Shown here in pieces: positions 6,949 through 61,641 of a stretch of 64,000 bases of DNA (position 1 is the first letter of the stretch; each line of letters begins with the position of its first letter). The notes under the pieces are model-generated. The model saw only the letters and a list, made by a program, of their open reading frames with translations. It had not been told where the DNA came from and ran no database searches. Made by a program: the position numbers and the translations under genes. The DNA is from Polyangium mundeleinium. GTDB lineage: Bacteria; Myxococcota_A; Polyangia; Polyangiales; Polyangiaceae. The stretch lies in the NCBI RefSeq assembly GCF_028369105.1, contig NZ_JAQNDO010000001.1, forward strand, positions 1,843,711 to 1,907,710, written 5' to 3'.

Positions 6949-8718
6949 TCACTTCGCGGCCGCGTCCGTGGTCCAGAGCGAGCGGCGCATGGTTTCGAGC
7001 CGCTCGACCACGCCCGTGAGCTCGCGCGCCTCCGCGTCGCAGGCCTGCGTCGCGGCCTCCACGCCGGGCGCCTTGCCCGCTCGCTCGGTGCGCGCGGCTT
7101 CCAGCACCTCGATGACCTCGCGGTGCAGCTCTTCGCCCGCGGTCACGACCCACTGGTCGAGCCGCTGCGCGAACTCCTGGATCATCTCGTCGAGCTTCGG
7201 GCCGACGCGCGCGGCGGCCTCGCGCAGCGCGTTCGGGGCGAGCTCCTTGGCGCGCTTCCTCGTCTCGGCCTCGACCTTGTCCTTCACGTACACGGCGAGG
7301 ACGGGCGAGGCGAGCAGGAGCAGGCCGCCGAGCAGGACGTTCGTGAACATCACGCCGAGGCCGAGCGTGAAGAGCGCGAAAACGCCCACGTCGTAGCCGA
7401 GCGTGTCGACCTCCACGCTGGGCGAGCGGACGTCCGAGCCGAGCGCCTGCCCGACACGCTTGGCCACGTCGTGCGCGTCCTCGCGGACGAGCGCGATCGT
7501 CTTCTCGGCCAGCGCTTCGAGCGCGTTCGCGATCTCCTTCGTCTCGGCCTGCGCCCAGTCGGCGAACGTCTTCTCCAGGAAGGGGCCGAGCCAGACCTTG
7601 ATGTCTTCGGCCGAGTGGTTGTCGACGAGGTCCGGGATCTGCCGGGTCACGTCGTCGACGAAATGAGCGAGATCACGCTGCACCCAGGCGCGGATCGCGG
7701 CGACCTCCTCGCGGATGCCCACGCGACGCTCATCGATCGTGCGGGACTGGCCTGCGAGGTCCTTCTCCAGGAGGTCGATGCGGCGCGCGAGCTCCTCGCT
7801 CGACATTTGCGCGGCGCGCCTGCGCGCGTCGATGCCCTTCACCAGCATGCGCGCGGCTTCGAGGCCCTCGCCGAGCGCGTTGTCGAGCAGGATGCGGCCT
7901 CGCTCCTCGGCGAGGAACTTCGTCAGGTGCCCGAGCAGCTCGGGCATGCCGCTCTCCTCGGGGTGCCCCTCGGCCGCGCGCTTCGCGCTGACGGGGAAGA
8001 CCACGGGCGTGCGGATCAGCTTGGCGAGCTCGGTGCGGATGTAGGCGAGCGCCTCCTCCTCCTCGTCCTCGCTCCAGATGTCCTTCTTGGTGACGACGAA
8101 GATGATCTTGTCGCGCGACTGGCCGAGCAGCTTCTCGTTGAGGAAGACGCGCTCGCTCTCCTTGAGCGGCTGACCCGCGTCGATGAGGAAAAGCACGGCG
8201 TCCGAGCGCGGGATGTAGCTGTAGGTGATGTCCGCGCGCTGGAGCGAGAGGTCGTTCACGCCTGGCGTGTCGACGAGCACGATGCGCTCGCGGAGCAGCT
8301 CCGCCGGGTAGAAGACCTCGAGGTGCTTCACCTCGCTCGTCGCGCTCTCGGAGCCTTTTTCCTGACCGACGGCGAATTTGCGCACCTCCTCGAACGGCAT
8401 CGTCGTGCGCTCGCCCGAGGCCCGCACGAGCTCCGCGCGCGGCTCGGGCGCGTATTCGAGGTGGTGGATGACGGCCGTCGTCGGGGTCACGCCGACGGGC
8501 AGGACCTCGGCGCCGAGCAGCGCGTTCACGAACGTCGTCTTGCCGTGGTTGAACTCGCCGACGACGACGAGGTGGAAGCGGTCGGCGGAGAGTTTGTCGA
8601 CGACGTCGCTGCCGAGGCGGCCCGCGAGGGAGCGCGCGCCGACGCGGCCGGCGATCGAGAGCAGCTCGCGGAGCGTAGTGGTGATTTCGACCTGTCTCGT
8701 GCGGAATGTCTCGAGCAT
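6949..8718 (-). CDS. Bacterial dynamin-like GTPase (DLP)
   Basis: G1 VVVGEFNHGKTTFVNALLG and G3 DTPG are followed by a long helical stalk and two TM-like hydrophobic segments near the C-terminus. The start is set at MLETF, 4 nt after the upstream M48 stop. Confidence 0.8.
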   Translation of the reverse strand: MLETFRTRQVEITTTLRELLSIAGRVGARSLAGRLGSDVVDKLSADRFHLVVVGEFNHGKTTFVNALLGAEVLPVGVTPTTAVIHHLEYAPEPRAELVRASGERTTMPFEEVRKFAVGQEKGSESATSEVKHLEVFYPAELLRERIVLVDTPGVNDLSLQRADITYSYIPRSDAVLFLIDAGQPLKESERVFLNEKLLGQSRDKIIFVVTKKDIWSEDEEEEALAYIRTELAKLIRTPVVFPVSAKRAAEGHPEESGMPELLGHLTKFLAEERGRILLDNALGEGLEAARMLVKGIDARRRAAQMSSEELARRIDLLEKDLAGQSRTIDERRVGIREEVAAIRAWVQRDLAHFVDDVTRQIPDLVDNHSAEDIKVWLGPFLEKTFADWAQAETKEIANALEALAEKTIALVREDAHDVAKRVGQALGSDVRSPSVEVDTLGYDVGVFALFTLGLGVMFTNVLLGGLLLLASPVLAVYVKDKVEAETRKRAKELAPNALREAAARVGPKLDEMIQEFAQRLDQWVVTAGEELHREVIEVLEAARTERAGKAPGVEAATQACDAEARELTGVVERLETMRRSLWTTDAAAK

Positions 8719-8722
8719 CGTC

Positions 8723-9616
8723 CTACCCGACCACCTTGATGATGTCGTGCACCTTCTCGTCGACCTCTTCCATCGAGAGGCCGGGGCCTTCCTGGCCGAT
8801 GTGCTTCTTGTAAAGCTCACTCTCGGCGAACGTGCGCAGGGCCATCACGCGCTTCGGCAGGTAGGGGTGGCTCGCGAGCAGCTCGCGGTAGCGGCCCACG
8901 CCCTCCCGGCCCTCCTCGTACTGCGCGAGGAACGCGTCCATGTTGAGCTCGGCGTAGAGTTTTGCCGATCCGAGCGCGAGCTTGGCAAAGGTCCGCTGCG
9001 CGACCTCGAGGCTCCTGCAGCAGAGCAGCCCCGCGCGATCACACGTGACCTCGGCGCGGCGCGACCAGCTCGACAGCGCGACCACCGCGGGCTCGACCAG
9101 CGGGCCGAGCAAGCGCGAGGCCATGATCTTGAGGTAGTGCATCGCCGTCAGGTAGACGACGTGGCTGTTGTGGATGTGGCCGCACTCGTGGCCGATGACG
9201 TTTCGCAGGTCCTCGTCGGAGAAGTGATCGACGAGCGCGGAGTGGACCATGATGAACGAGTCATCGTTCGTCCCGTACGTCGCCGCGTTCATCTGCGGGT
9301 TGTTCAGGATGTAAACGGTCGGCGTCGCGATGCCGAGCGTCTGCGCGCATTCGGCGGCGATGCCATGCACGCGCGGGAACTGGTTCGTCCCGACCTTCAC
9401 TGCGTGGCCGAGGAGATCACTCTTGCCGACGGCCTTGAAGAACCGGACGGAGGCGGCGACCGCCAGCTCGACCGGCTTCATCTTGTCGAACGCGGCGCGC
9501 GTCGTCCGATCGGAGACGTACGCATACGCGTGTCCACCCCCGTCCACGCCGCCTGCGCGCTGTTCTTTGCGGTTCTCGATGAAGCCCTTGAAATCGAGCG
9601 TCCCGACTTGTGCCAT
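8723..9616 (-). CDS. M48-family zinc metalloprotease (HtpX-like)
   Basis: HECGHIHNSH contains the HExxH motif in an M48-like context. It is first in the minus-strand run M48, DLP, MglA-like, HK, thiL. Confidence 0.75.
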   Translation of the reverse strand: MAQVGTLDFKGFIENRKEQRAGGVDGGGHAYAYVSDRTTRAAFDKMKPVELAVAASVRFFKAVGKSDLLGHAVKVGTNQFPRVHGIAAECAQTLGIATPTVYILNNPQMNAATYGTNDDSFIMVHSALVDHFSDEDLRNVIGHECGHIHNSHVVYLTAMHYLKIMASRLLGPLVEPAVVALSSWSRRAEVTCDRAGLLCCRSLEVAQRTFAKLALGSAKLYAELNMDAFLAQYEEGREGVGRYRELLASHPYLPKRVMALRTFAESELYKKHIGQEGPGLSMEEVDEKVHDIIKVVG

Positions 9617-9702
9617 GGTCCTCGAAGGTAACGGCGTGCCTCCTACAGCGCAACCGTCGGCCCAGGATCCACCACGAAAATCAAAACTCCTTCACGCGCC
9701 CT

Positions 9703-10674
9703 TCACACGCCGAGCATTTCGGCGAGCTCGCGCGTCGAGAGCGCCTCGATGGCCGCGCCGCGCGCCACGAAGCGCCGGTAATCTTTGAAGGCGACCACGC
9801 CGCGCGGGCGCAATTCGTAGTCCGTGATGCGCGTGATCGTGAAGCGAAGCGTCGCGAAGAGCGCCGCATCGCGGAGCGCCGCTCGCTCGTCGTCCGCGAG
9901 GGCGCGGACCGTGGAATATCCGCGCGCGAGCGCCCGCGCGAGGCCTCGATCGAGCCCGTCCCCGAAGCACCACGCGAGCACCGTGACCATGAGGTCGAAC
10001 GCGGCCGCGCCGCTCGACGCGCTCTCGAAATCGAGGAGCGCGGTGAGCGCGCCGTCCCGGAACAGAACGTTGTCCCGAAAGAGATCGGCATGGATCACCG
10101 GGAGCGTCGGGCCGAGGCTCACACGGGAGAGGTGGTCGAGCCGCCGTTCGAGCGCGGGCAGGATTTGCTGCACGTGCTCCGGTGCGTCCGTCCGCTCGCG
10201 AAGGCCCGCGAGCCGCGCCGCGAGGTCCTCGGGGCCGAACCGCGTCATGAGCGGCTCGCCGAACGACGCGCCCGCGAGGTGGACACGGGCGAGCCCTTCC
10301 CCGACGGCGCGCGCGTGCGCCTCGGTCACCCCGCGCTGACAGCGGACGTCGCCTTCGATCCACGGGAAGACGACCGCGGGTTTGCCCGCGTGTTCGGCCA
10401 CGAACGAGCCGCCTCCGGAGGCGAGGAGCAGCGGCATGGGGGTGGGCACGCCGCGCTCGGCGAGGTGCGCGAGCAGGCGCGCCTCCCGCTCGGCCGAGGC
10501 CACATTCGCGCCCTCGTAGATCCGCAAAAAGACACGGCTCCCGCCTTCGATAGCGAGCTCGTAGCTCGTGTTTACGCTGCCCGCGTCGAGCCCGCGGGCG
10601 CCCGTGACGACGAGCCCGAAGCGCGCGCCGAGCGCCTGCGCATCATCCTGCGAGAGTGCCGTGAAGATGCCCAT
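9703..10674 (-). CDS. thrB: Homoserine kinase type II (APH-like phosphotransferase family)
   Basis: MGIFTALSQDDAQALGARFGL resembles the ThrB2 N-terminus, and the APH-fold catalytic region HADLFRDNVLF is present. Start chosen at the internal ATG at 10674. Confidence 0.75.
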   Translation of the reverse strand: MGIFTALSQDDAQALGARFGLVVTGARGLDAGSVNTSYELAIEGGSRVFLRIYEGANVASAEREARLLAHLAERGVPTPMPLLLASGGGSFVAEHAGKPAVVFPWIEGDVRCQRGVTEAHARAVGEGLARVHLAGASFGEPLMTRFGPEDLAARLAGLRERTDAPEHVQQILPALERRLDHLSRVSLGPTLPVIHADLFRDNVLFRDGALTALLDFESASSGAAAFDLMVTVLAWCFGDGLDRGLARALARGYSTVRALADDERAALRDAALFATLRFTITRITDYELRPRGVVAFKDYRRFVARGAAIEALSTRELAEMLGV

Positions 10675-48331: not shown

Positions 48332-49708
48332 ATGAAGCTCCTTCGCGCCCTCGCCTTGTCGTTGCCTTTCCTCGTGGTGCCCGCCCTGTACGCGACCGAT
48401 TCGAATGCGTGCGGCGGCTGTTTCATCAGCCAGCAGGAAACCACGCAGGTCACGGGCCACCGCATGGTCCTTTCGATCTCGAACGATCGCACGACCCTTT
48501 GGGATCAAATTACCTACGCGGGTGATCCCGCCTCGTTCGCCTGGCTCTTGCCGATCAAGGGGCAGGTCGACATCGGACTCTCGTCCGACGCCGTCTTCAA
48601 CGCGCTCGAACAGGGCACCCAGGTCTCGGTCCTCTCGCCCTCGATCAACTGCCTCCCGTCGGACTGCGTGGGCGCGCCGAACGCTGGCGGGGACGGCAGC
48701 GGCGGCACCGGCGGCGGGACTGGGGGCGTCGAGGTCATCGCCGAGGAGGTCGTCGGCCCGTACGCGACCGTGCAGCTCTCGTCGCAGGATCCCAATGCGC
48801 TCGCGAACTGGCTGCTCACGAACGGCTACAACATCCCGCCCGACATCAAGCCGATCGTCGACGCGTACGTGAACGAGGGCTTCGACTTCCTGGCCCTCAA
48901 GCTCGTGCCCGGCCAGGGCATCAACTCGATGCGCCCCGTGCGTGTCACCTCGCTGGGCGCGCTCCCGGTCCTGCCGCTGCGCATGGTCGCCGCGGGCACG
49001 GGCGCGATCACGCCGATCACGTTGTGGGTCCTCGCCGAGGGCCGCTACGAGCCGACGAACTTCCCGAGCTTCCAGATCAAGGCCGCGGATCTCGTGTGGA
49101 ACTGGGACACGCAGTCGAGCAACTACAAGGACATCAAGCAGCAGAGCTTCGACGCGTCGGGCGGCAAGGCGTGGCTCGTCGAGGCGGGCGAGCCGCTCTC
49201 GCGGTACTGGATCGAGGACAGCCTGAAGTACACGGCCGAGTTCGACCCGGAAAACAGCGGCTACGGCGGCGATCCGATGGGCCCGAGCGCGCTCGACGAG
49301 TGCATCGAGGACCTCGACGCGCTCTTCGGCTCGATCCCCGAGAACAGCCTCTGGGTGACCCGCATCCACGCCGAGCTCTCGCGGGCGGCGCTCGCGGCTG
49401 ACCTCACGCTGGGCGCGTCGAACGACCAGTCGTACGTCGAGCGATGGCTCCAGGTCTCGAACGCCGTGGGCACGCCGCCCGCGTGCCCGCCGCCGCCGGA
49501 CTGGTGCGTCGACCCGGGCACCGAGCCGGGCACCGACCCCGACCTGAACCCCTGGGACAACGGCTTCGGCGTGGGCAACGACGACCCGAACCTGGGCCAG
49601 GGCAGCGGGAGCTGCGCTGTCGGCGGCGCGGCGAGCATGCCCGCGGCGCTCGGGCTCCTCGGCGGCGCGATGCTCCTGTCCGTCGCGCGTCGCCGTCGAC
49701 GTCGTTAG
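48332..49708 (+). CDS. DUF2330-like secreted protein with MYXO-CTERM-type C-terminal sorting signal
   Basis: Signal peptide. C-terminus GSCAVGG...LLGGAMLLSVARRRRRR (Cys, hydrophobic helix, poly-Arg). Confidence 0.7.
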   Translation: MKLLRALALSLPFLVVPALYATDSNACGGCFISQQETTQVTGHRMVLSISNDRTTLWDQITYAGDPASFAWLLPIKGQVDIGLSSDAVFNALEQGTQVSVLSPSINCLPSDCVGAPNAGGDGSGGTGGGTGGVEVIAEEVVGPYATVQLSSQDPNALANWLLTNGYNIPPDIKPIVDAYVNEGFDFLALKLVPGQGINSMRPVRVTSLGALPVLPLRMVAAGTGAITPITLWVLAEGRYEPTNFPSFQIKAADLVWNWDTQSSNYKDIKQQSFDASGGKAWLVEAGEPLSRYWIEDSLKYTAEFDPENSGYGGDPMGPSALDECIEDLDALFGSIPENSLWVTRIHAELSRAALAADLTLGASNDQSYVERWLQVSNAVGTPPACPPPPDWCVDPGTEPGTDPDLNPWDNGFGVGNDDPNLGQGSGSCAVGGAASMPAALGLLGGAMLLSVARRRRRR

Positions 49709-49933
49709 TCCCGAGGGGAACGCCTCGCGTCCCCCTCTCGTCCGGGCAAAGCCCGGCCGATTCACCCCCTAGAGGCGAGCTCGCTTCGCGACCTCGTGTG
49801 GTTTTCCTGGTCGTCTTCCACCGCCGCCCGCGCGATTTTTTCGCGGATCACGCGTCTTGTCGTTTCGTTCGGGTCGCCCTAGCCTCTTTTGCAGGCGTGG
49901 ACCGCGACCCAGCGGCCGCGACCCGGAGGAAAC

Positions 49934-50869
49934 ATGTACGGTCCCAAAGGTCAGAGCAGCGGCGCTGGTCGTCCGCCTGCAGCCCCGAAGAAGGTCACCG
50001 TTCCGGACATTCGCGCACGGAAGGCAAGTGGGCCGCCGATCGCGATGGTGACGGCCTACGACTTCACGATGGCGCGCCTCCTCGACGAGGGCGGCGCGGA
50101 CATGCTGCTCGTCGGTGATTCGCTCGGCATGGTCGTGCAAGGGCACCCGACGACGTTGCCCGTGACGGTCGAGGAGATCTGCTACCACGGCCGCGCGGTC
50201 GCGCGCGGGGCGCGGCGGGCGCACGTGGTCGGGGACATGCCGTTCATGAGCTTCCAGGTCTCGTCCATGCAGGCCCTGGAGAACGCGGGCCGCATGATGA
50301 AGGACGGCGCGTTCGAGAGCGTGAAGCTCGAAGGCGGCGAGGAGATCGCCGAGCACGTGCGCCGCATCGTCGCGGCGGGCATCCCGGTGTGCGGGCACAT
50401 CGGGCTCACGCCGCAGTCCGTGCACGCGATGGGCGGCTTCAAGGTGCAGGGCAAGGGCGAAGAGAACGCGGCGCGGCTCGTGCGCGACGCGCAGGCGCTC
50501 GACGAGGCCGGCGCCTACGCGATCGTGCTCGAAGCGATCCCGCCGGATCTCGCGGAGGAGATCACGGCGGCCGTGTCGGTCCCGACGATCGGCATCGGCG
50601 CGGGCGCGGGGTGTGATGGGCAGGTGCTCGTCTGTTACGACATGCTCGGCATGTACCCGGATCTGCGCCCGCGCTTCGCGAAGCGCTTCTCCGAGGTGGG
50701 CGAGCAGATCATGGCGGCGACGCGGGCGTACGTGGACGAGGTGCAAGCGCGCACGTTCCCGGGCGCCGAGCACAGCTTCAAGCCGAACGGCCCGCGCCGC
50801 ATCACGCCGCCGGCCGAGCCTGCGGCGGCGGCGCTGGAAGAGATTCCTCCGCACTGGCAGACGCATTGA
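49934..50869 (+). CDS. panB: 3-methyl-2-oxobutanoate hydroxymethyltransferase
   Basis: MVTAYDFTMARLLDEGGADMLLVGDSLGMV... SD GGAGGA. Confidence 0.9.
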   Translation: MYGPKGQSSGAGRPPAAPKKVTVPDIRARKASGPPIAMVTAYDFTMARLLDEGGADMLLVGDSLGMVVQGHPTTLPVTVEEICYHGRAVARGARRAHVVGDMPFMSFQVSSMQALENAGRMMKDGAFESVKLEGGEEIAEHVRRIVAAGIPVCGHIGLTPQSVHAMGGFKVQGKGEENAARLVRDAQALDEAGAYAIVLEAIPPDLAEEITAAVSVPTIGIGAGAGCDGQVLVCYDMLGMYPDLRPRFAKRFSEVGEQIMAATRAYVDEVQARTFPGAEHSFKPNGPRRITPPAEPAAAALEEIPPHWQTH

Positions 50870-50917
50870 GGTTGGGTCGCGAGGGCGGGCCTGCGCGCCC
50901 GCCCCGCGCGTCCGGCA

Positions 50918-51928
<1,011 letters not shown>

Positions 51929-51970
51929 GTCCCCACTCCTCCGAAGCAAGGAGCGCGATGCTACCGCGGT

Positions 51971-54004
51971 TCAGGCTGGCGTGGACGCCGAACCCTCGCG
52001 CTTTTGCCCCACCGCGCGCAGGAACAGCTCCAGCACGGCGAGGACGAGCAGCCCGAGCGCAACATAAGGCGACGCGTCAATCGAGGGCACGACCCCGCCG
52101 AGCTCCTCGGCGCGCGCCGCGTCGATCACGCGCCGCGGCCGCAGATCGATCTCGCGCTCCGGCACGGTCGCGACCCGCACCGCGCGCTCGCCGTCGAGCC
52201 GCACCTCGTACCGGCCCTGCAGCGGCGCCACGGCGCGACGGCGGCCGTCCTGCTCCACGACCGGGATCGGCCGCCGCGCCTCGCCCGCGCGCACCGGCAA
52301 TCGCTCGATGGCCACGTCCTTGAACCCGTCGAACGTGAACGCGTCGCCCACGTCGATCTGCCGCGCCCCGCCCCGCGCTCGCGCCGTGCCCACGAACCGG
52401 TCCAGCAGCGCCAGGAAGGCCGGCCGGAGCACGAAATCGCTCTCGTCCACGGTGAGCGGCAGCGAGAGCGCGAAGACGGCGCCCCGGCCGAGCGAGCGGC
52501 GCAGCAGCAGCGGCGCGCCGTCGTCCCAGCGCGCGAGCACGTCCGCGTTCGTCGCGGCGGCCGGATCGAAGGACGCGCGCCCATCGGGCGAGAGCTTCGC
52601 CAGGCCTTCCGCGCTCGGGCCGAAAAACACCGCGCTCGTGGCATCGGCGCCCTGCGACGGGCTCGGCCCCCAGCGCACCACGCCCGGCATGAGCGGGTCG
52701 AACCCTGCGCCGAGCGGGGCCGTCGCCGCGCGCGGCCCGAACGTCAAGAGCAGCACGCCCCCGCGCTCCACCCACGCGGCGAGCGAACGCCGCCCTTCCG
52801 GCGTGAAGCCCGGCACGTCGTCCACGATGAGCCCCGCGAACGCCGCGAGCTCGTCCGCGTGGTCCGGCACCGCGGGCAGGGGACGCACCTCCGCGTCGAG
52901 GTGCATCGCCGCGAGCGCCTGCTCGATCGGCGGCGGCCCGCCTGTCGCCACGTGGGTCGAGGCCACGTCCACCACGACCGCGATCGGCAGCGCTCCGCCG
53001 GCCGGCACGACCGGCGCCTCGTCGTCCTCCAGGATCGCGTCGCCCGGCGTCAGCCCGACCGTCAGCTCCTCCGGCGCGCCTTCCGGCACGTCGAGCGCGA
53101 CCTCCTCGGCGCGGACCGCGGCCCCGAGCGGCGCCGACGTCAGCACCTTGCCCCCGGCGCGCAGCTCCACCGCCCGACCTGCCGAGGCCGAGATCCCCGC
53201 CGCGCCCTCGCCCGCCGCCCGCGTGTCGGGGCTGCACACGACACGCGCCCGCACCTTGCCCGCGCGCAGATCCGCCCGCGTCACCGCGCAATCGCTGCCC
53301 GAGGCCACGAGCTCCGGCAGCGGCGCCCAGAGCGTCGTATCCGAGCCGCCGCCGAGGGGCAGCGCGTTCGGCGCCCCGTCCGCGAGATCGCTCAGCAGCA
53401 CCACGCGCCGATCGGCGTGCGGCACGCTGCGCAAAAGCTCCCGCGCCAGGGCCAGCGCGCCTTCCAGATCGGTCGCGCGATCGGACGGCTCGATCCCCTC
53501 GAGCGCGCCCGTCACGGCCGCCATGTTCGTCGTCGACGCGAGTGCCACCCGCGCGGGCGCGCCCCCGAGGACCACGGCCACCGCATCGCCGCTGCGCAAA
53601 CCCGTCGTGAGCTCGCGCGCCGACGCGAGTGCCCGCTCGAACTTCGTCCGTTTCCCCGGCCCGCCTGCCCCGCCTTCCAGCGGCGCGCGCATGCTCAGCG
53701 AATCGTCGATCACGATCGCGAGCGCCACCGACGCCCCGTCCCTCCGCGCTAGCCCGAGCCGTGAGCACCGCACGAACGGCGTCGCGCCGAGCACCGCGAG
53801 CATCAGCACGCTGAGCGCCCGCACCACGAAGAGCGAGCGATCCTCCAGCATGCTCCGCCGCCGGGCCATCGGCTTCGTCGCCGGCACGAGCTTCGCGGGC
53901 GGGAAGGGTTGCTCCTCGGCTTGCCTTCGCCGGAGCAGGTGCGCCGCGACCGGCGCGCCGACGAGGAGCGCCACGAGCAGCGCGGCGATCGTCGCGAAGC
54001 TCAT
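51971..54004 (-). CDS. BatA-like protein: N-terminal double-TM domain plus vWA domain
   Basis: MSFATIAALLVALLVGAPVAAHLLRRR (TIGR02226-like) and vWA VALAIVIDDSLSM. ATGA overlap with the upstream DUF58 gene. Confidence 0.7.
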   Translation of the reverse strand: MSFATIAALLVALLVGAPVAAHLLRRRQAEEQPFPPAKLVPATKPMARRRSMLEDRSLFVVRALSVLMLAVLGATPFVRCSRLGLARRDGASVALAIVIDDSLSMRAPLEGGAGGPGKRTKFERALASARELTTGLRSGDAVAVVLGGAPARVALASTTNMAAVTGALEGIEPSDRATDLEGALALARELLRSVPHADRRVVLLSDLADGAPNALPLGGGSDTTLWAPLPELVASGSDCAVTRADLRAGKVRARVVCSPDTRAAGEGAAGISASAGRAVELRAGGKVLTSAPLGAAVRAEEVALDVPEGAPEELTVGLTPGDAILEDDEAPVVPAGGALPIAVVVDVASTHVATGGPPPIEQALAAMHLDAEVRPLPAVPDHADELAAFAGLIVDDVPGFTPEGRRSLAAWVERGGVLLLTFGPRAATAPLGAGFDPLMPGVVRWGPSPSQGADATSAVFFGPSAEGLAKLSPDGRASFDPAAATNADVLARWDDGAPLLLRRSLGRGAVFALSLPLTVDESDFVLRPAFLALLDRFVGTARARGGARQIDVGDAFTFDGFKDVAIERLPVRAGEARRPIPVVEQDGRRRAVAPLQGRYEVRLDGERAVRVATVPEREIDLRPRRVIDAARAEELGGVVPSIDASPYVALGLLVLAVLELFLRAVGQKREGSASTPA

Positions 54005-54936
54005 GCGCGCGCCTCGGCCACGGCGCGCACCACCTCGCGCACCACGTCGGCGGGAGGCTTGTCCGTCGTTGCCTCGACCCAGCGACCGCCCCGCGCGGAC
54101 AGCTCCTTCGACCAGTGCTCGGCGATCCCCGCGATCCGCTCGCGATACACCGCGCGCACCTCCTCGGCGTCCGTCTCGACGACCACGTCGCCCTCGCTCG
54201 CGCGGAGCCGCACGTGCCCGGAGAAGCCGAGATCTGCCTCGTTGGGATCGAGCACCCGCACCGCGACGAGCGAGCGCCCGCCGGCCCCGAGCGCCGTGAA
54301 CGCCGAGAGCGCCCGCTCCGGCAGGTCCACGAAATCGCTCACCAGCACGATCACCGCGCCGCGCCGCGCGCGCCGCGCCACGGGGGCGAGGGCGCGCTCC
54401 ATGGCCGCCTCGTCCGCGCTCGCGTCGCCTGCCGCCGCGGCCCCTTCGAGCGCCCCTGCGACCCGGTCGAACGCCTCGCGCCCGCTCGACGCCGGCAGCG
54501 GCATGGTCCCCCGCCCGCCGATCCACGCGAGCCCCACGGGATCCCCCGTCGACAGCGCCACGCGCGCCAGCGCTGCGGCCACGAGCGCCCCGTAGGCGAG
54601 CTTCGCGCCCGGGGCCCGGCTGCTCCGGTAGGCCATCGACGCCGTCGCGTCCACGCACAGCCAGAGCGCGCGATCCGTCTCCGTCTCGAACTCGCGCACC
54701 ATCATCCGGTCGTGCCGCAGCAGCGCGCGCCGGTCGAAGAACCGGAGATCGTCGCCGGGCACGTAAGGCCGGTGCCCGCCGAACTCCACGCCTGGCCCTT
54801 TGCGCACGCTCCGGTGCCCGCCGGCGTAGACGCCTTCGGCCAGCGTTCGGGCCCGCAGGCGCAGCGGCGCGAGGCTACCCCAGTCGATGGGGATCCCGTC
54901 CGTTCCGGAGCGCTGCGAGGGGCGAAGCTCGGCCAT
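54001..54936 (-). CDS. DUF58-family protein (MoxR/Bat-operon associated)
   Basis: DUF58 core FGGHRPYVPGDDLRFFDRRA...VSDF. No MoxR ATPase gene lies upstream. Confidence 0.75.
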   Translation of the reverse strand: MAELRPSQRSGTDGIPIDWGSLAPLRLRARTLAEGVYAGGHRSVRKGPGVEFGGHRPYVPGDDLRFFDRRALLRHDRMMVREFETETDRALWLCVDATASMAYRSSRAPGAKLAYGALVAAALARVALSTGDPVGLAWIGGRGTMPLPASSGREAFDRVAGALEGAAAAGDASADEAAMERALAPVARRARRGAVIVLVSDFVDLPERALSAFTALGAGGRSLVAVRVLDPNEADLGFSGHVRLRASEGDVVVETDAEEVRAVYRERIAGIAEHWSKELSARGGRWVEATTDKPPADVVREVVRAVAEARA

Positions 54937-55004
54937 GAGGGGATCGATGCATTACCCCAACGGGAAAGGCCCGCCACGACAAAACTTGTGGCAAGGAGAG
55001 GACC

Positions 55005-55904
55005 GTGCGCGTGTTCTTCTGCGATCACGTGGAGGTCCCGCTTCCGCCTGGGCATCGCTTCCCGATGGCGAAGTACGCACGCCTGCGCGAGCGCCTGCTT
55101 TCAGCGCTCCTGCTCGATCCGACGGACCTCCAGCCTTCCACGCCCGCCTCGATCACCGACCTCGCGCGTGTCCACGCGCCGCACTACCTCGAAGGCTTGC
55201 TCTCGGGCACGCTCGACCCCCGCATCTTGCGCGCCATTGGGTTTCCCTGGTCCGACGCCCTCGTGCGCAGGTCGCGCGCCAGCGTCTCGGGCACCCTCTG
55301 CGCCGGCCGCGCGGCCCTGGAAGACGGCATTTCGGGAAACCTCGCCGGCGGCACGCACCACGCCTTCGCGGATCGCGGCGCTGGATTCTGTGTCTTCAAC
55401 GACATCGCCGTTGCCTGCCGCACCTTGCTCGACGCGGGCGACGTCCGCCGTGTGCTCGTCCTCGACCTCGACGTCCACCAGGGCGACGGCACCGCCTCCC
55501 TTTTCGGAAACGAGCCCCGCGTGTATACGGCCTCGATCCACGGCGAAAAGAATTTCCCTTTTCACAAGCAGCAGAGCGACCTCGACCTCGCGCTCCCGGA
55601 CCAGACGGGCGACGACGAATACCTCGCCGCGCTCGAACCTTTTCTCGCCCGCGCCTTCGCCGAATCGAACCCCGATTTGGTTTTTTTCCAGGGCGGCGTG
55701 GACGCCCTCGCGGCGGACAAACTGGGCCGGCTCGGCATGACGGCGGCGGGCATGCGCAGGCGGGACGAGCGTGTCCTCGGCGAGGCGCGCCGCCGCGGCA
55801 TTCCGATCGCGCTCACCCTGGGCGGTGGATATACCGATCCCATCGACGCGACCCTCGCCGCGCACGTCGGGACGTATGCGGTCGCCCGTGAGGTCTTCGG
55901 ATGA
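55005..55904 (+). CDS. Histone deacetylase-family Zn-dependent deacetylase (AcuC/AphA-like)
   Basis: GGTHHAF...GFCVFNDIA...LDLDVHQGDG...GGGY motifs. GTG start with SD AAGGAGAGG. Confidence 0.85.
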   Translation: MRVFFCDHVEVPLPPGHRFPMAKYARLRERLLSALLLDPTDLQPSTPASITDLARVHAPHYLEGLLSGTLDPRILRAIGFPWSDALVRRSRASVSGTLCAGRAALEDGISGNLAGGTHHAFADRGAGFCVFNDIAVACRTLLDAGDVRRVLVLDLDVHQGDGTASLFGNEPRVYTASIHGEKNFPFHKQQSDLDLALPDQTGDDEYLAALEPFLARAFAESNPDLVFFQGGVDALAADKLGRLGMTAAGMRRRDERVLGEARRRGIPIALTLGGGYTDPIDATLAAHVGTYAVAREVFG

Positions 55905-56257
55905 CGCCCGGACGCATCACGCTGCTCCTCCTCGCGACGTTGCTTTCGGCCTGCCGTGGCGGCGAATCGGCCGACGCGACGCCGACACCGCCCGAGACCA
56001 CGCCGTCGGCCGCGCCCTCGCCCTCGCCCTCACCCTCCATGCCGCGCCGCCCGACGATCCGCCATTACCTCGCGCGCACGGCGGAGCGATGCGAGGTGTA
56101 TTCGGTCGACCGGGACGCCGTCTCCCCGGCCACGCGCACCCCGTGCCCGCCGGATTTGCAGATCGGCGAGCGCATTCGTGTCATGGGGAAATCGTGCATG
56201 CGGGAGGGGAGCACCGAACGGACGCAGCCGGTGGTGTGTCCGGGGGCGCTCTTGTAA
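55901..56257 (+). CDS. Small hypothetical lipoprotein
   Basis: Lipobox LLSAC. ATGA overlap with the deacetylase stop. Confidence 0.45.
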   Translation: MTPGRITLLLLATLLSACRGGESADATPTPPETTPSAAPSPSPSPSMPRRPTIRHYLARTAERCEVYSVDRDAVSPATRTPCPPDLQIGERIRVMGKSCMREGSTERTQPVVCPGALL

Positions 56258-56836
56258 GTAGGCGGCGCGGGCCGCCGACGGTGGATGGCGGGGGCTCCCC
56301 GAATCGAATCGTCGAAACGGTCATGTTTCGCGCGTCCGCCTCTTGTTCTGCCGCCGAACGAGCTTCGCCTCCCCTGGGGGCCCGCCGGCTCTCGTCCCCG
56401 AACGCTTCCCGGTTCCCCGGCCGCCCCCTGTTTCGCGGCAAGCTGTGACCGTCGTCGCGTCCGCCTCCTGTTTTGCTCCGTGAGCCTGTCGGCTCGACCT
56501 CCGGACGGGGATTTTTTCGCGAAACAGCCCCGGGCTTGTCTCGCCGGCCGGCCGTTGTTTCCCGCAACCACGCCGGGACGCGGCCGCAATCCATTGTTGT
56601 TTGCGCCTGAAGCGAGGCGGACCCGCGGACCAATCCTGTCCTGTCGCAAAACGAGTCCCGGCCCGCCGCGCACCTCCTTGTTCGGCAGCCGAACAGGACC
56701 CGTCTCCGGAGGGCGGAGCCAGTCGGGGTTGCTTCGAATGAGGTGTTCGGCGTGGCTTGGCTGTATCGTGAAGATGCGAGCGCCTCATGGGCTCGCTGGT
56801 GGATGTCCTTGGGGCTTTGGGCGTGGGAGGGTGCGC
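56258..56836. promoter_or_regulatory. 579-nt noncoding region with five TGTTT(C/G)(C/G)CG boxes, a TTTCGCGAAA palindrome and three ~32-nt direct repeats (CGCGTCCGCCTCYTGTTYTGC...)
   Basis: Boxes at 56324, 56429, 56515, 56556 and 56598. Long repeats at 56331-56363, 56452-56484 and 56667-56697. No convincing ORF. Confidence 0.35.
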
Positions 56837-57358
56837 ATGAAACGGATCGTCATCGGGGTGCTGCTCGTTTCGATCGCTCTGCCTGCGCCTGGGTGCACGG
56901 AGGACAAGTGCAAGAATCCGGCAAAGAGCAGCGACCGGATCAGAAACATCTGGAGGGATGGGGATGCGATCAAGTGCAACGCGGTCGTGACCTGCCCCGG
57001 TCATGGCGGGCGCCCGGACAACAGGTTTGCGCTTCAGGGCCTTGAGGATCCCACCACCATCGACCAGCATCGCGATGACTGGAACGAGGGCCATTGCAAG
57101 CAGAAGGTCTGGGACCAGCCGTGGTGGAACCCCGAGTGCACGGTCGTGGTGTCTCCGGCGATCAGTTGCCTCGATGTGGATGGGGGATCAGGTGCGCCTG
57201 GGCCCACGCCCACGGGAGGGACCCTGGTCACGGTCGGCGTCGGAGCGGGAAGCGGGGACTACTGGATCACCGAGCAGGGGGTGGGTGGCGCGGGGGGCGT
57301 GGGCGGCGCTGGAGGGTTCAGCGAAGAGCCCGGGGAGGCTGGGCACGGCGGAGAGTAA
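56837..57358 (+). CDS. Small lipoprotein with Cys/Trp-rich core and Gly-rich C-terminus
   Basis: MKRIVIGVLLVSIALPAPGC lipobox. SD GGGAGGG. It lies within the conserved ~47-nt leader also found at 60713. Confidence 0.55.
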   Translation: MKRIVIGVLLVSIALPAPGCTEDKCKNPAKSSDRIRNIWRDGDAIKCNAVVTCPGHGGRPDNRFALQGLEDPTTIDQHRDDWNEGHCKQKVWDQPWWNPECTVVVSPAISCLDVDGGSGAPGPTPTGGTLVTVGVGAGSGDYWITEQGVGGAGGVGGAGGFSEEPGEAGHGGE

Positions 57359-57880
57359 TCACCGCTCAGGAACCGCGCCGGACGAGCCTGAAAGTGGCGA
57401 TTGTCCCGTGGCCTCCCGCAACCTGGCGTACCAATCCGTGCCCGTGAGCGCGGGGCAAAGCGACTCCGTCTTGGTACGAAAACAAGCCAGGAATTCCTGC
57501 TGGTCGATGTTCCTCGACTGGTGCTTTTGTTGCAGCGAATCCTGGCAGCGAGTCCCGGCGATATCGGTGTCGCGCCAGAAGCGAGCCCCCTGCATGTCTT
57601 CGCACGAGGCGCAAAAGACCGGGTCAAGCCCCGTGCAAGGCACCTTCTCCGGGCAGAACGACAGGACGCAGCTCGCCAGGCATGCGTCCATGTACTCTTC
57701 GGTGACGACACGACAATCAACGTGCGTGCAGTACCCCTCGGTCAGCTCTGCGAGGTCCTCGCAAATCTCTTCACGGGTTTGGCCCGTGCCCCTGGGCTCC
57801 CCCCGATACGCCCCCAGCCCCACGGTGACCAGCGCGACGGCAGCGACGGCGATGGCGATGTACGATCCGCGGCGTTTCAT
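57359..57880 (-). CDS. Secreted/membrane-anchored Cys-rich protein, paralog 1
   Basis: N-terminal TM/signal IAIAVAAVALVTVGLGAYRGE. 11 Cys. Shared motifs GARFWRD, TRC, CFRTKTE..CPALTGTDW. The ~60-nt conserved upstream leader is duplicated in the paralog. Confidence 0.6.
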   Translation of the reverse strand: MKRRGSYIAIAVAAVALVTVGLGAYRGEPRGTGQTREEICEDLAELTEGYCTHVDCRVVTEEYMDACLASCVLSFCPEKVPCTGLDPVFCASCEDMQGARFWRDTDIAGTRCQDSLQQKHQSRNIDQQEFLACFRTKTESLCPALTGTDWYARLREATGQSPLSGSSGAVPER

Positions 57881-57960: not shown

Positions 57961-58461
57961 TCATTGCCCCAGCGCAGTCAGCATCCGCGCGTGCCAGTCG
58001 GTACCGGCGAGCGCCGGACAACGCCGCTCGGTCTCAGTCTTGAAACAGGTGACCCATGCCTCTCGGCTGGGGGCCGGGACCTTCTCGTGAGCGACGGGCG
58101 CTTTGAGCTCGTTGCTACACCGCGTTTCTGCGTTGTTCGCGTCGCGCCAGAAGCGGGCGCCGTGCAGGTCCTCGCACGGCGCTCGCCAGATCGGGTCGGC
58201 GTTGCGGGGTAGCAATGGGGCGTAGTCCGGGCAGTACGTCATCAAGCAACCCGCCTCGCAAGCGTCGGCGAAGTCTTCCGTAATCGCCATACAATGGCCA
58301 AGATGAGCACCCTGCTCGCACATCTCGATGGCGGTATCGAGGTCCGAGAGGCAACTCTCTTCCCCCGTGTAGGGCACTTCCCCCCGATACGCCCCCAGCC
58401 CTACGGCGACGAGCGCGACGGCGGCGACGGCAACGGATAGCATCGATCGGCGGCGTTTCAT
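57961..58461 (-). CDS. Secreted/membrane-anchored Cys-rich protein, paralog 2
   Basis: About 45% identical to paralog 1 with the same N-terminal anchor, conserved Cys pattern and duplicated leader. Confidence 0.6.
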   Translation of the reverse strand: MKRRRSMLSVAVAAVALVAVGLGAYRGEVPYTGEESCLSDLDTAIEMCEQGAHLGHCMAITEDFADACEAGCLMTYCPDYAPLLPRNADPIWRAPCEDLHGARFWRDANNAETRCSNELKAPVAHEKVPAPSREAWVTCFKTETERRCPALAGTDWHARMLTALGQ

Positions 58462-58608
58462 GGCTGTCTCCCCTGGGCCCGGTGAGCCTACACGCGCCCG
58501 CCGGGAAAAACGAGCGCGCTTCGGGGCGGATCGCGTGGCACGGGCACGGGGGGCGTTCCCTGGAAAAACCGTGTCACCCTCCTGCCCCCTGCGGCAAAGA
58601 TCCCGAGC

Positions 58609-59226
58609 ATGACGCCTCGTTCGCAGTCGACCGACTTCCCCGCGGCCATTGCGGCCCTCGTCCCGGACATTCGCCAGCTCGTCATGGGTGCATTGCGGCG
58701 CCAGGGGGCGGATCCGGACCTCGCCGAGGAGCTGATTCAGGAGATCGTCATCACGCTCCTCGGTAGCGCGTCGACCTATCGTCCCGAGCTCGGCGCGCTC
58801 CGGCCGTGGGCGCATGGCGTCGCGATGAATGTGGTGAAGAACCGCCGCCGGAGCCGCGTCGGCTTCAAGGGTGGCGAACGCTCCACGAGCACACGTGCCG
58901 CTGGGCCCTTCCAAGCACCGCCCTATGGGCGTTTCTCCTCGCCGGCGCGCGCCCGGTGCCGCCTTCCCTGGCGCGCGCTGGCCTTCACGTTCCTGCGGTC
59001 CACGTGGCGGCGCAGGCGGAGACGCCGCACGCAGAGGCCCTCGCCCTTCCGGCGCTCTCCCTTGCCACCGAACGCCGCACGCCGACGCCTCCTTCGCCTC
59101 GCCGCGAGGCCCGGCCTCGGCTCCTTTTTCACATCCAGGGCATTACGCCCGGAGACGAAGGGGGTTCGTCCCGGTAATGGACGGCCTTGCAGCATGCGTC
59201 GCGCCGCGTGTACCATGCGGGGATGA
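58609..59226 (+). CDS. ECF-type sigma factor (clear region 2; Arg-rich atypical region 4)
   Basis: DPDLAEELIQEIVITLL...WAHGVAMNVVKNRRR matches Sigma70_r2. The C-terminal LPPNAARRRLLRLAARPGLGS only loosely resembles region 4.2. It is divergent from the Cys-rich paralogs. Confidence 0.5.
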   Translation: MTPRSQSTDFPAAIAALVPDIRQLVMGALRRQGADPDLAEELIQEIVITLLGSASTYRPELGALRPWAHGVAMNVVKNRRRSRVGFKGGERSTSTRAAGPFQAPPYGRFSSPARARCRLPWRALAFTFLRSTWRRRRRRRTQRPSPFRRSPLPPNAARRRLLRLAARPGLGSFFTSRALRPETKGVRPGNGRPCSMRRAACTMRG

Positions 59227-59579
59227 TTCGAGCGTTCGGGGGCCTTTCGTTGTTGGTGGCGCTCGGCGGCGTTGCGAGGGCGGAGACCGGCACCGACGCG
59301 GACGCTGCCGCGGCCGTGCGATTCGAGGCCCTCGCGACGATGGGGGACCGCGCGCGCGCCGCAGGGCGGCTCCGGGAAGCTGCCATCGCGTATGGGCAGG
59401 CGCTGGAGGTGCGGAACGATCCGCTCGTCGCGGGCCGGCTCGGCGTGCTGCTCGTGGAGATGGGCACGCCCGGGCAAAGCCGTTCGGTCTCAGAAGGTGG
59501 GAGACCTCCGGCCCCGCGGACGCGCGGAGCGAGCGAAGAGCGTGTCGGGTCTACAGGCTGGGAAAGCCGAGGAATTTGA
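59223..59579 (+). CDS. Small secreted protein, ATGA-coupled to the ECF sigma gene
   Basis: Signal peptide LVALGGVARA/ETG. It has no cytoplasmic anti-sigma-like domain. Confidence 0.4.
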   Translation: MIRAFGGLSLLVALGGVARAETGTDADAAAAVRFEALATMGDRARAAGRLREAAIAYGQALEVRNDPLVAGRLGVLLVEMGTPGQSRSVSEGGRPPAPRTRGASEERVGSTGWESRGI

Positions 59580-59625
59580 CGAGAGACGTTGTGGACCTGT
59601 ATGTCGGAGTGCGGAGGGAGGACCT

Positions 59626-59997
59626 ATGAAGCTGCTCGCAGGTCTCGGAGCGCTTTTTCTGTACGGTTCGCTCGGTGTCGCGTCGGGCGTGGGTGACATC
59701 CAGCAAGAACCGCCGCCGCCCATGTCGTTGACAACGATGGGAGCCGCGCCCACAGGAGTTGTGCCCGAAGGGGGCGCGGCGGTGCAGGCGGCGGGCTCGA
59801 CAGGACGGCGGCCCGTAATGCTCCAGGAAATGAGCGATGAGGAGAAGGAGCGACGGAGAGAGGAATGCGCAACGTTGTACGAGCACTGCTACGATTGGTG
59901 CGGGAAGGCGCACAAGCGCGGCAGTGCTGCGCTGCGGCGTTGCAATCAGGAGTGCTCGGACAAGAATACAGAGTGCATGAAAAAGATTCCGAACTGA
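59626..59997 (+). CDS. Small secreted protein with C-terminal 6-Cys module
   Basis: SD GGAGGGAGG. Signal peptide, then CATLYEHCYDWCGKAHKRGSAALRRCNQECSDKNTEC. Confidence 0.5.
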   Translation: MKLLAGLGALFLYGSLGVASGVGDIQQEPPPPMSLTTMGAAPTGVVPEGGAAVQAAGSTGRRPVMLQEMSDEEKERRREECATLYEHCYDWCGKAHKRGSAALRRCNQECSDKNTECMKKIPN

Positions 59998-60013
59998 AGC
60001 CACGGCGCACCTG

Positions 60014-60691
60014 ATGGACATCCTGACGACACGAACCCTGCGGTACACCGACGAGGGCGGCGGGACCGAGGAGGATGTGGTTCTCACCATCTTCGTGCCC
60101 TTCGAACAAGACGATGGGCAATGGTTGTGCGTGTTCGATTTCGAACCGCCCATCAAGCCAAGGTTCATGAAGGGGTGCGGCGTCGACATCATCCAGGCAT
60201 TCGTCCACTGCCTGATCTTTGCGCGCCTCTCCTTCGAAACCACACGCTGGTCGAGGACCGGCCATTGGCAAGGATTACGCGACTGCGGCTTGCCCATGAA
60301 CAAGGGTCCCTGGCCGGATCAGCCGCCCGAAATCCCACCACCCGAAGACAACCCCGGAACCCTCGAGGTCTTTGCGACCCGGAGGCTCGGCTGTCCTGAC
60401 GAAACCGGCGCAGCCACGGAGCTTCTCCTCACCGTTTTCAAGCCCTACCAGGCAGAGGGCGACACGTGGAAATGCGCCTTCGCCTTCGGTCCATCCGAGA
60501 CCGCGCCCATTCGCCATGGCACCGGAGCGGACTTCATCGAGGCCGCTCTCGACGGGCTCGCCCTGGCGCGAGCGACCTACGAAAGCATGCTGCCGAAGGG
60601 CTGGGCTCCGGCGTCGGAAAACCTCCTCGATTGTGATGACCTGCCCTTCAAAATCGGGCGGTCGTTCTGGACGGGTGGGCCGACGTCGTAG
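60014..60691 (+). CDS. Cytoplasmic protein composed of two tandem ~85-aa homologous domains
   Basis: Internal repeat VVLTIFVPFEQDDGQWLCVFDF... versus LLLTVFKPYQAEGDTWKCAFAF... No signal peptide. It starts 17 nt after the preceding gene. Confidence 0.55.
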   Translation: MDILTTRTLRYTDEGGGTEEDVVLTIFVPFEQDDGQWLCVFDFEPPIKPRFMKGCGVDIIQAFVHCLIFARLSFETTRWSRTGHWQGLRDCGLPMNKGPWPDQPPEIPPPEDNPGTLEVFATRRLGCPDETGAATELLLTVFKPYQAEGDTWKCAFAFGPSETAPIRHGTGADFIEAALDGLALARATYESMLPKGWAPASENLLDCDDLPFKIGRSFWTGGPTS

Positions 60692-60742
60692 CGCCGAGGA
60701 ACACCGCTTCGTCTCGCCGGTGGATGTCCTTGGGCTTCGGGC

Positions 60743-61641
60743 GTGGGAGGGGGCGCATGCTCGGCGCCAGACGGCTTCTGGCGCGGGGAGTGCGATCCGG
60801 ACCCGTTTTCCCCGAGCGAGCTGTGCCCGGAGCCGCAAGATGCTGGCACCGACGCCGATGCCGATAGCGACGCTGGCCTTGGCACCCCTGGTGCGGATCC
60901 CCAGTCGACGAGCTGTGAGCACGGTGGCGGTCGTTGCGTCCCGGTGCCGAGCGGCGGGGAACATGCGGGATTGTGGAGCAAGGAGCCGATCGCGTTATGG
61001 GTGGGTCCGACGCCCAAGGAAGGGGATCCGCCGCTCGTGTGTCCGAAGGGCACATCGAGCGAGCAATTCCGCCTCTACAGATGGAGGAGCCGTGCCAGCC
61101 CGTGAAGGCGGTGCCGGATTTCACGACGAAGACCGAATGGCAGACGGCAGCGCTCGGGTGTACGGCCAACCTGGACGATGATTCATGCGGTTCGCGCGAG
61201 AAGTCTTGCGTCGCGGATCCGGGGTTCGAGTACCTGCAATGTGTGCACCGGGAAGGGAAGTTCACGCTGGAGGATTGCCCGATGAACTACCGCTATGCGT
61301 GGTATGTGGGGTATCCAGAGAAAGCAGTGGACGATCGCGGGTGCGAGGCGTGCGCGTGCGGGCCCGTCGCGGGGAGTGGTTGTGTGGCTTCGGTCCGGCT
61401 CTACAACGACGCCGCTTGCGCGTCGCAGTTCGAGCAGGGCGGCCTCGCCTCCGGCTACGAGAAGTGCATCAACATCGTCGCGCCCGGCCGGGCCCTCGGA
61501 GCCAAAGCGATCACGGATCTCGCCTACGTGCCTGGCGAATGCGCGAGCAGCGGCGGCACGCCCACCGGGGCGGCGACGCGGGACGCCACCGGCGCGGTGA
61601 CGTTCTGCTGCCTCGGGCCGTTTTACCTCGACATCAACTGA
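60743..61641 (+). pseudogene. Frameshifted/decayed Cys-rich secreted-protein gene sharing the leader of the 56837 lipoprotein
   Basis: The conserved leader ATG at 60757 opens only a 36-aa frame. A protein-like reading needs the GTG frame 60743-61105 plus a +1 shift near 61040-61060 into the 60934-61641 frame (Cys/Trp/Tyr-rich, ending FCCLGPFYLDIN). Confidence 0.4.

Follow-up and report, generated by a model that had tools for sequence, protein, structure and literature searches.

An apparent ECF sigma factor and small secreted protein pair in Polyangium mundeleinium is very probably what remains of a decayed three-gene operon

The window analysed in this study is a 64,000-nucleotide stretch of the P. 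mundeleinium genome with a GC content of 68.5%. On its forward strand, a 205-aa open reading frame (ORF) occupies positions 58609-59226, and its product is 100% identical to P0001, an NCBI protein of P. mundeleinium. An earlier note on this DNA had read the ORF as an ECF sigma factor with a clear region 2 and an atypical, Arg-rich region 4, translationally coupled to a small secreted protein. Pfam analysis placed Sigma70_r2 (PF04542) in residues 22-83 with E=6e-11 and 42.4 bits, where the gathering score is 24, so the region 2 described in the note is real. No match to the sigma-4 families (PF08281/PF04545) was obtained at E<=1 in the same frame or in two other forward-frame ORFs, and a six-frame translation combined with Pfam analysis of the alternative forward ORFs revealed no sigma-4 in another frame or on the other strand. 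The TIGR02937 profile scored 28.6 bits against a cut-off of 42.9 and was covered only at positions 4-71 of 165. The run of seven Arg residues noticed earlier was found at 59008-59028, and LPPNAARRRLLRLAARPGLGS is present in the same product. The Arg content is 26% in residues 80-205, which include only two acidic residues, compared to 9% in residues 1-79. The ORF overlaps a downstream signal-peptide ORF through an ATGA at 59223-59226. This second ORF (59223-59579, forward strand) encodes 118 aa and begins with MIRAFGGLSLLVALGGVARA followed by ETG, a signal-peptide-like start that is conserved in orthologues. In the NCBI annotation, the two ORFs are ordinary proteins ('RNA polymerase sigma factor' and 'hypothetical protein') and not pseudogenes, which counts against the decay described below.

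The closest relative of the 205-aa product was P0002, a 304-aa protein encoded on a soil metagenome contig (L001). P0002 carries Sigma70_r2 (47.2 bits), Sigma70_r4_2 (60.7 bits, residues 119-169), and a TIGR02937 match of 89.8 bits over positions 3-165. When P0002 was searched against the window by tblastn, aa 1-88 matched frame 1 at 58609-58872 with 86% identity, and aa 199-304 matched frame 3 at 58857-59174 with 90.6% identity. No match to aa 89-198 was found anywhere in the 64 kb. We then aligned four DNA sequences: the window, copies A and B of the sigma gene on L001, and the syntenic locus of Polyangium sp. y55x31 (L002). Columns 313-658 of this alignment are absent from the window as one clean 346-column gap and were ungapped in L001 copy B and L002, which are of equal length over this stretch and about 80% identical to each other. 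The blastn coordinates concurred with the gap. Both tblastn and the alignment showed that the sigma frame of the window is not colinear with its orthologues and passes from frame 1 to frame 3. These results indicate that the window carries the derived, deleted state, since the two references share only about 80% identity and every member of the family has sigma-4.

The deletion junction, GAAC/CGCC (58839-58846, forward strand), lies between 58842 and 58843, as located by the alignment and blastn. Its sequence is GTGAAGAAC followed directly by CGCCGCCGGAG, and the 3' flank in L002 is GGCGAAC/CGCC, giving a microhomology of 3-4 nt (GAAC). The missing 346 nt correspond to codons 79-194 of the orthologue, namely the linker and the whole of sigma-4. 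As 346 equals 3x115+1, the loss shifts the reading frame. A simple 1-2-nt frameshift inside 58880-59200 was ruled out by the alignment. The suspicion of frame corruption raised in the earlier note was thus correct, but the cause is a large deletion rather than a small indel, and the lesion sits just upstream of the interval 58880-59200 in which indels had been suspected.

The 205-aa ORF can accordingly be divided at the junction. The surviving 5' part of the sigma gene (58609-58842, forward strand) comprises codons 1-78 with sigma-2, as supported by the Sigma70_r2 match, by the tblastn match to P0002 aa 1-88, and by third-position-biased substitutions compared to orthologues. The following DNA (58842-59177, forward strand) is 93% identical to the DNA for the C-terminal extension of the orthologue, matched by P0002 aa 199-304 in tblastn, and is out of frame with the start codon. 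In the ancestral frame, it reads PEPRRLQGWRTLHEHTCRWALPSTALWAFLLAG...ITPGDEGGSSR and ends with a TAA at 59175-59177, 45 nt before the ATG of the downstream ORF; the distance is also about 45 nt in intact operons. The Arg-rich tail (58843-59226, forward strand) is a frame-shifted read-through of this extension DNA, and it ends at an accidental TGA. What had been taken for an atypical region 4 is therefore extension sequence out of frame, and the true region 4 has been deleted. The GC1/GC2/GC3 values changed from 0.71/0.48/0.84 before the junction, which is normal for high-GC coding DNA, to 0.63/0.76/0.77 after it, which is the pattern of DNA that is non-coding in that frame. Because the ancestral stop is the TAA at 59175-59177, the TGA of the ATGA overlap is a by-product of the shifted frame. 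The overlap itself is real, but the translational coupling drawn from it holds for the shifted frame only.

A deletion between short GAAC microhomologies removed codons 79-194 and shifted the frame by +1. A ribosome would then read the former extension out of frame, and the outcome would be a tail rich in Arg that runs to a chance stop overlapping the ATG of the second ORF. As a mechanism, illegitimate recombination or replication slippage would fit the microhomology. A search for repeats and tandem repeats as the cause of the Arg run or of the deletion gave only short matches at chance level. Since the product has no sigma-4, it would not recognize a -35 element and is expected to be non-functional.

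About 35 nt directly 5' of the sigma ATG (58573-58611 in the window, 1528-1565 in L001, and the equivalents in L002 and L066) were near-invariant across the four orthologous loci, compared to only about 70-93% identity in their coding regions. This leader reads GTCACC...CCCCTGCGGCAAAGATCCC..GCATG and has no Shine-Dalgarno-like sequence; it may be a leader or regulatory element. A scan for sigma-70-type promoters gave no sites, and two weak terminator-like hairpins inside the disrupted ORF were at chance level.

The downstream ORF was compared with its counterparts in related loci, which are 408 aa long in L002 and 404 aa long in L066. In tblastn with the 408-aa protein of L002, aa 1-86 matched the window at 88% identity, and the rest was absent from the window. 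The tblastn result and the breakpoint sequences define a 5' stump at 59223-59477 (forward strand), consisting of codons 1-85 (the signal peptide and first TPR-like helices) of a gene of about 404-412 aa. Homology breaks at 59477, where GGCACGCCCGGGCAA is followed by AGCCG..., and the final 33 residues of the 118-aa ORF have no counterpart. They are encoded by an unrelated tail (59478-59579, forward strand) made up of filler at 59478-59549 and the sequence up to a stop at 59577-59579, which matched nothing significantly in L001, L002, or elsewhere in the window. No origin for the 72-nt filler was detected in these three sequences. The filler was also considered as a piece of a second sigma copy, comparable to copy A of L001, and this was rejected because the local alignment scored lower than the mean of the shuffles.

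The family to which the stump belongs has more than 100 homologues, nearly all of about 400-415 aa, which go by the names 'PEGA domain-containing' or 'tetratricopeptide repeat' protein. Polyangium accounts for almost all of the named members, and P. mundeleinium has no fewer than four full-length paralogues. P0020 and P0026 are paralogues in this species. Pfam gave only weak TPR matches in the 118-aa ORF, compared to TPR and PEGA in the full-length orthologue. An AlphaFold model of P0005 (46-sequence alignment, mean pLDDT 87) showed a signal peptide followed by five TPR-like helices (24-116), a PEGA-type beta-sandwich (119-185), a disordered linker, and a C-terminal 8-stranded beta-barrel (244-403). 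In Foldseek, the barrel resembled NspA, Ail, OmpA, OmpW, and OmpX (E 6e-7 to 2e-4; TMt 0.6-0.68). With 88% identity, residues 1-85 of the 118-aa ORF correspond to the N-terminus of this Polyangium TPR-PEGA-barrel family. Unlike the family, the window copy has lost the last TPR helices, PEGA, linker, and barrel, has gained 33 unrelated residues, and therefore does not show the full architecture of TPR, PEGA, and a C-terminal barrel ending in WEF. Neither the partner ORF nor the full-length orthologue contained a cytoplasmic anti-sigma domain (ZAS/RskA/FecR-type) with a transmembrane helix, as judged by Pfam and the orthologue model. The earlier observation that the partner has no anti-sigma domain was thus borne out, and this absence is a property of the partner family, not something special to the pair in the window. 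The signal peptide was also rightly recognized, but there is no dedicated small protein: the 118-aa 'small secreted protein' is what the truncated 5' end of a gene of about 410 codons, for an outer-membrane protein, now encodes.

Beyond the stump, the window departs from the gene order of L002. The two are syntenic over window positions 49448-56770 and across the sigma gene, and L002 positions 9221-10399, about 1.2 kb of the operon in which the PEGA gene is completed and the third gene begins, are replaced by window positions 59478-60895. Within this replacement lies a two-ORF cassette, inserted or replacing (59550-60699, forward strand), which is 92.6% identical to L001 340-1489. Its ORFs are both intact and on the forward strand: a 123-aa Cys-rich protein with a signal peptide (59626-59997) and a 225-aa DUF6968 protein (60014-60691; DUF6968 E=1.4e-21). 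On L001, the cassette is flanked by a sigma remnant on one side and an intact sigma gene on the other. The cassette behaves like an inserted or duplicated unit, and no mobility genes or terminal repeats were seen.

Remnants of a third gene, encoding a Cys-rich lipoprotein of about 400 aa, were identified at 60764-61641 (forward strand; 60743-61641 in a wider delimitation) by tblastn and by MAFFT alignment with L002 and L066, where the gene is intact (about 400 aa). The window copy has no signal peptide, and 256 nt (3x85+1) are deleted between 61079 and 61080, which shifts the frame. In tblastn, aa 24-132 matched frame 2 and aa 196-403 matched frame 1. The public protein collection contains neither fragment.

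Upstream of the sigma gene, the window carries two tandem paralogous genes for Cys-rich secreted proteins on the reverse strand (57359-57880 and 57961-58461). Polyangium sp. y55x31 has a single such gene there (L002 7342-7857), and the window has about 490 extra bases at 56770-57261 compared to L002.

Sigma genes have also decayed in related loci. In L002, the sigma gene (8001-8921) has an in-frame TGA, formed from CGA, after region 2 and two codons past the position at which the deletion of the window starts. Its C-terminal half, P0116, is annotated by NCBI as a separate 203-aa 'sigma factor'. In L065, only the last 26 codons of the sigma gene are left (2529-2606), upstream of intact partner genes. 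Copy A of L001 is a heavily deleted second sigma copy. Intact operons were found in L066, in which a 300-aa sigma factor is followed by proteins of 404 and 401 aa, and in L001 copy B. Since the downstream PEGA-barrel and lipoprotein genes are intact in L002 and L065, the sigma gene appears to be lost more readily than the genes after it. The loss of one copy is unremarkable, given the many paralogous modules per genome.

The deletions and breakpoints themselves are observed. Compared to intact operons, the sigma gene has lost its linker and sigma-4, the second gene is cut after codon 85 with the 123-aa/DUF6968 cassette in place of the rest, and the third gene has lost its signal peptide and carries the 256-nt frameshifting deletion, so that all three operon genes are disrupted. 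We conclude that the locus is very probably a decayed three-gene operon of P. mundeleinium and not a working pair of sigma factor and partner. On this reading, the locus reflects the ordinary decay of genes and does not represent a novel type of sigma factor.

An assembly artefact was considered, in which the true genome is intact and the 346-nt gap, the 256-nt gap, and the cassette junction are mis-assembled. The genome was assembled with HGAP from PacBio Sequel or Sequel II reads (PMC10435759). The lesions are known from this one assembly, and the earlier note had reported another frame problem in the window, in lgt; motif regexes gave no lgt candidate in the window. Against an artefact, three separate large lesions lie in three adjacent genes. 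Residual errors of PacBio/HGAP assemblies are typically single-base or small indels, unlike losses of 256-346 nt or a 1.4-kb replacement. The cassette is also found beside a sigma remnant in the independent metagenome contig L001, and the independent decay of the orthologous sigma gene in L002 and L065 points to a natural loss of the gene. The large lesions in adjacent genes, together with the related arrangement of cassette and sigma remnant in an independent metagenome, make an artefact improbable. The headline reading of the earlier note was a working ECF sigma factor whose region 4 is Arg-rich through true divergence and which pairs with a small secreted protein; in its favour, LPPNAARRRLLRLAARPGLGS superficially resembles the start of sigma-4, by eye only. 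Besides the missing sigma-4 HMM match, however, the DNA under the Arg-rich stretch is 93% identical to orthologue DNA 3' of sigma-4, where it is translated in another frame, and the true sigma-4 coding DNA is physically absent in the four-sequence alignment, which refutes this reading and leaves it next to no probability.

The truncated product, sigma-2 with a junk tail, might instead have been kept for a function such as a decoy for the RNA polymerase core or a regulator. The 205-aa ORF is still open and has a conserved 5' leader, and the changes on the window branch in codons 1-78 (polarised with L002) were mostly at the third position, with none at the first codon position, one at the second, and six at the third. 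This pattern is compatible with either a recent deletion or a still-constrained remnant. With only seven substitutions, however, selection cannot be demonstrated, and a deletion of recent date would account for them just as well. Frame-shifted sequence with 26% Arg makes up the tail, and both downstream operon genes are also destroyed. The 80-aa fragment in L002 has its origin in another lesion, and a truncated form is thus not conserved. We therefore regard retention for a function as highly improbable, and decay of the operon as the preferred reading.

The intact relatives show what the decayed operon would have encoded. In intact operons, an ECF sigma factor of about 300 aa, with sigma-2, sigma-4, and a C-terminal extension of about 125 aa (residues 175-304 in P0002), is followed by a TPR-PEGA-barrel protein of about 410 aa and then by a Cys-rich lipoprotein of about 400 aa. 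A TPR-PEGA-barrel gene came next after the extension-bearing sigma gene in each of the contexts read (L001, L002, L066, and L067). An exhaustive HMMER search with P0002 gave about 30 cluster representatives (290-320 aa; P0118-P0146 and others) that aligned through the extension. The family was visible in the exhaustive search only, as a word-indexed search with P0002 returned just P0002, P0116, and P0001. After sigma-4, the members share a GLSxDD...PP motif, a W/R-rich stretch, a hydrophobic segment of 17-20 residues, an A(R/K)AGL motif, and a Pro-rich tail. The Kyte-Doolittle value of the hydrophobic segment reaches 2.3 and is about 1.2 (marginal) in P0002, and for most members the maximum falls in the expected segment. 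A model of P0002 showed confident sigma-2 and sigma-4, one long helix at 196-228 (pLDDT 72-86), and a disordered Pro-rich tail; the C-terminal half of the helix is hydrophobic in most members. The single helix of the extension may serve as a membrane anchor. Differences between L001 and L002 at codon positions 1/2/3 numbered 31/26/40 in the extension, a weak bias, compared to 14/6/28 in the sigma-4 region, and indels in the extension were multiples of three. No separate anti-sigma gene was found in the intact relatives, nor a zinc-finger or anti-sigma domain in the extension.

Compared with ECF (group IV) sigma-70 factors, codons 1-78 of the window encode a bona fide sigma-2, and P0002 and the sigma factor of L066 are full ECF sigma factors. 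The window copy, in contrast, has no sigma-4, falls below the TIGR02937 cut-off, and is a deletion and frameshift remnant. The conserved extension of the intact relatives is like those of ECF sigma factors with regulatory or membrane-anchoring C-terminal extensions, whereas the extension of the window is not translated in its proper frame. ECF220, as described in its table entry (Casas-Pastor et al. 2021), or another extension-bearing group would be a candidate for the intact family. In the reviews consulted, we found no experimental study of the extension-bearing sigma family. A tentative and rather doubtful proposal is that the intact family could be an uncharacterised signalling module, heavily expanded in Polyangium, in which a sigma factor with its own single-helix extension in place of an anti-sigma factor is co-transcribed with an outer-membrane TPR-PEGA-barrel protein and a Cys-rich lipoprotein.

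The 205-aa and 118-aa WP entries of P. mundeleinium are, on the decay reading, pseudogene fragments, and they should not serve to exemplify an ECF sigma factor that is Arg-rich or lacks sigma-4, or a sigma factor paired with a small secreted protein. The locus also illustrates how, in genomes of 68-70% GC, a gene with a shifted frame runs on without a stop over hundreds of bases and yields Arg-rich 'domains'. Of wider but tangential interest is the large unstudied Polyangium family that combines an extension-bearing ECF sigma factor with a TPR-PEGA-barrel protein and a lipoprotein. If the proposed module is real, the repeated loss of the sigma gene with the two downstream genes intact, as in L002 and L065, would need explaining. 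A self-tethered sigma factor, released by proteolysis on the cue of its outer-membrane partner, would then represent a one-component variant of cell-surface signalling.
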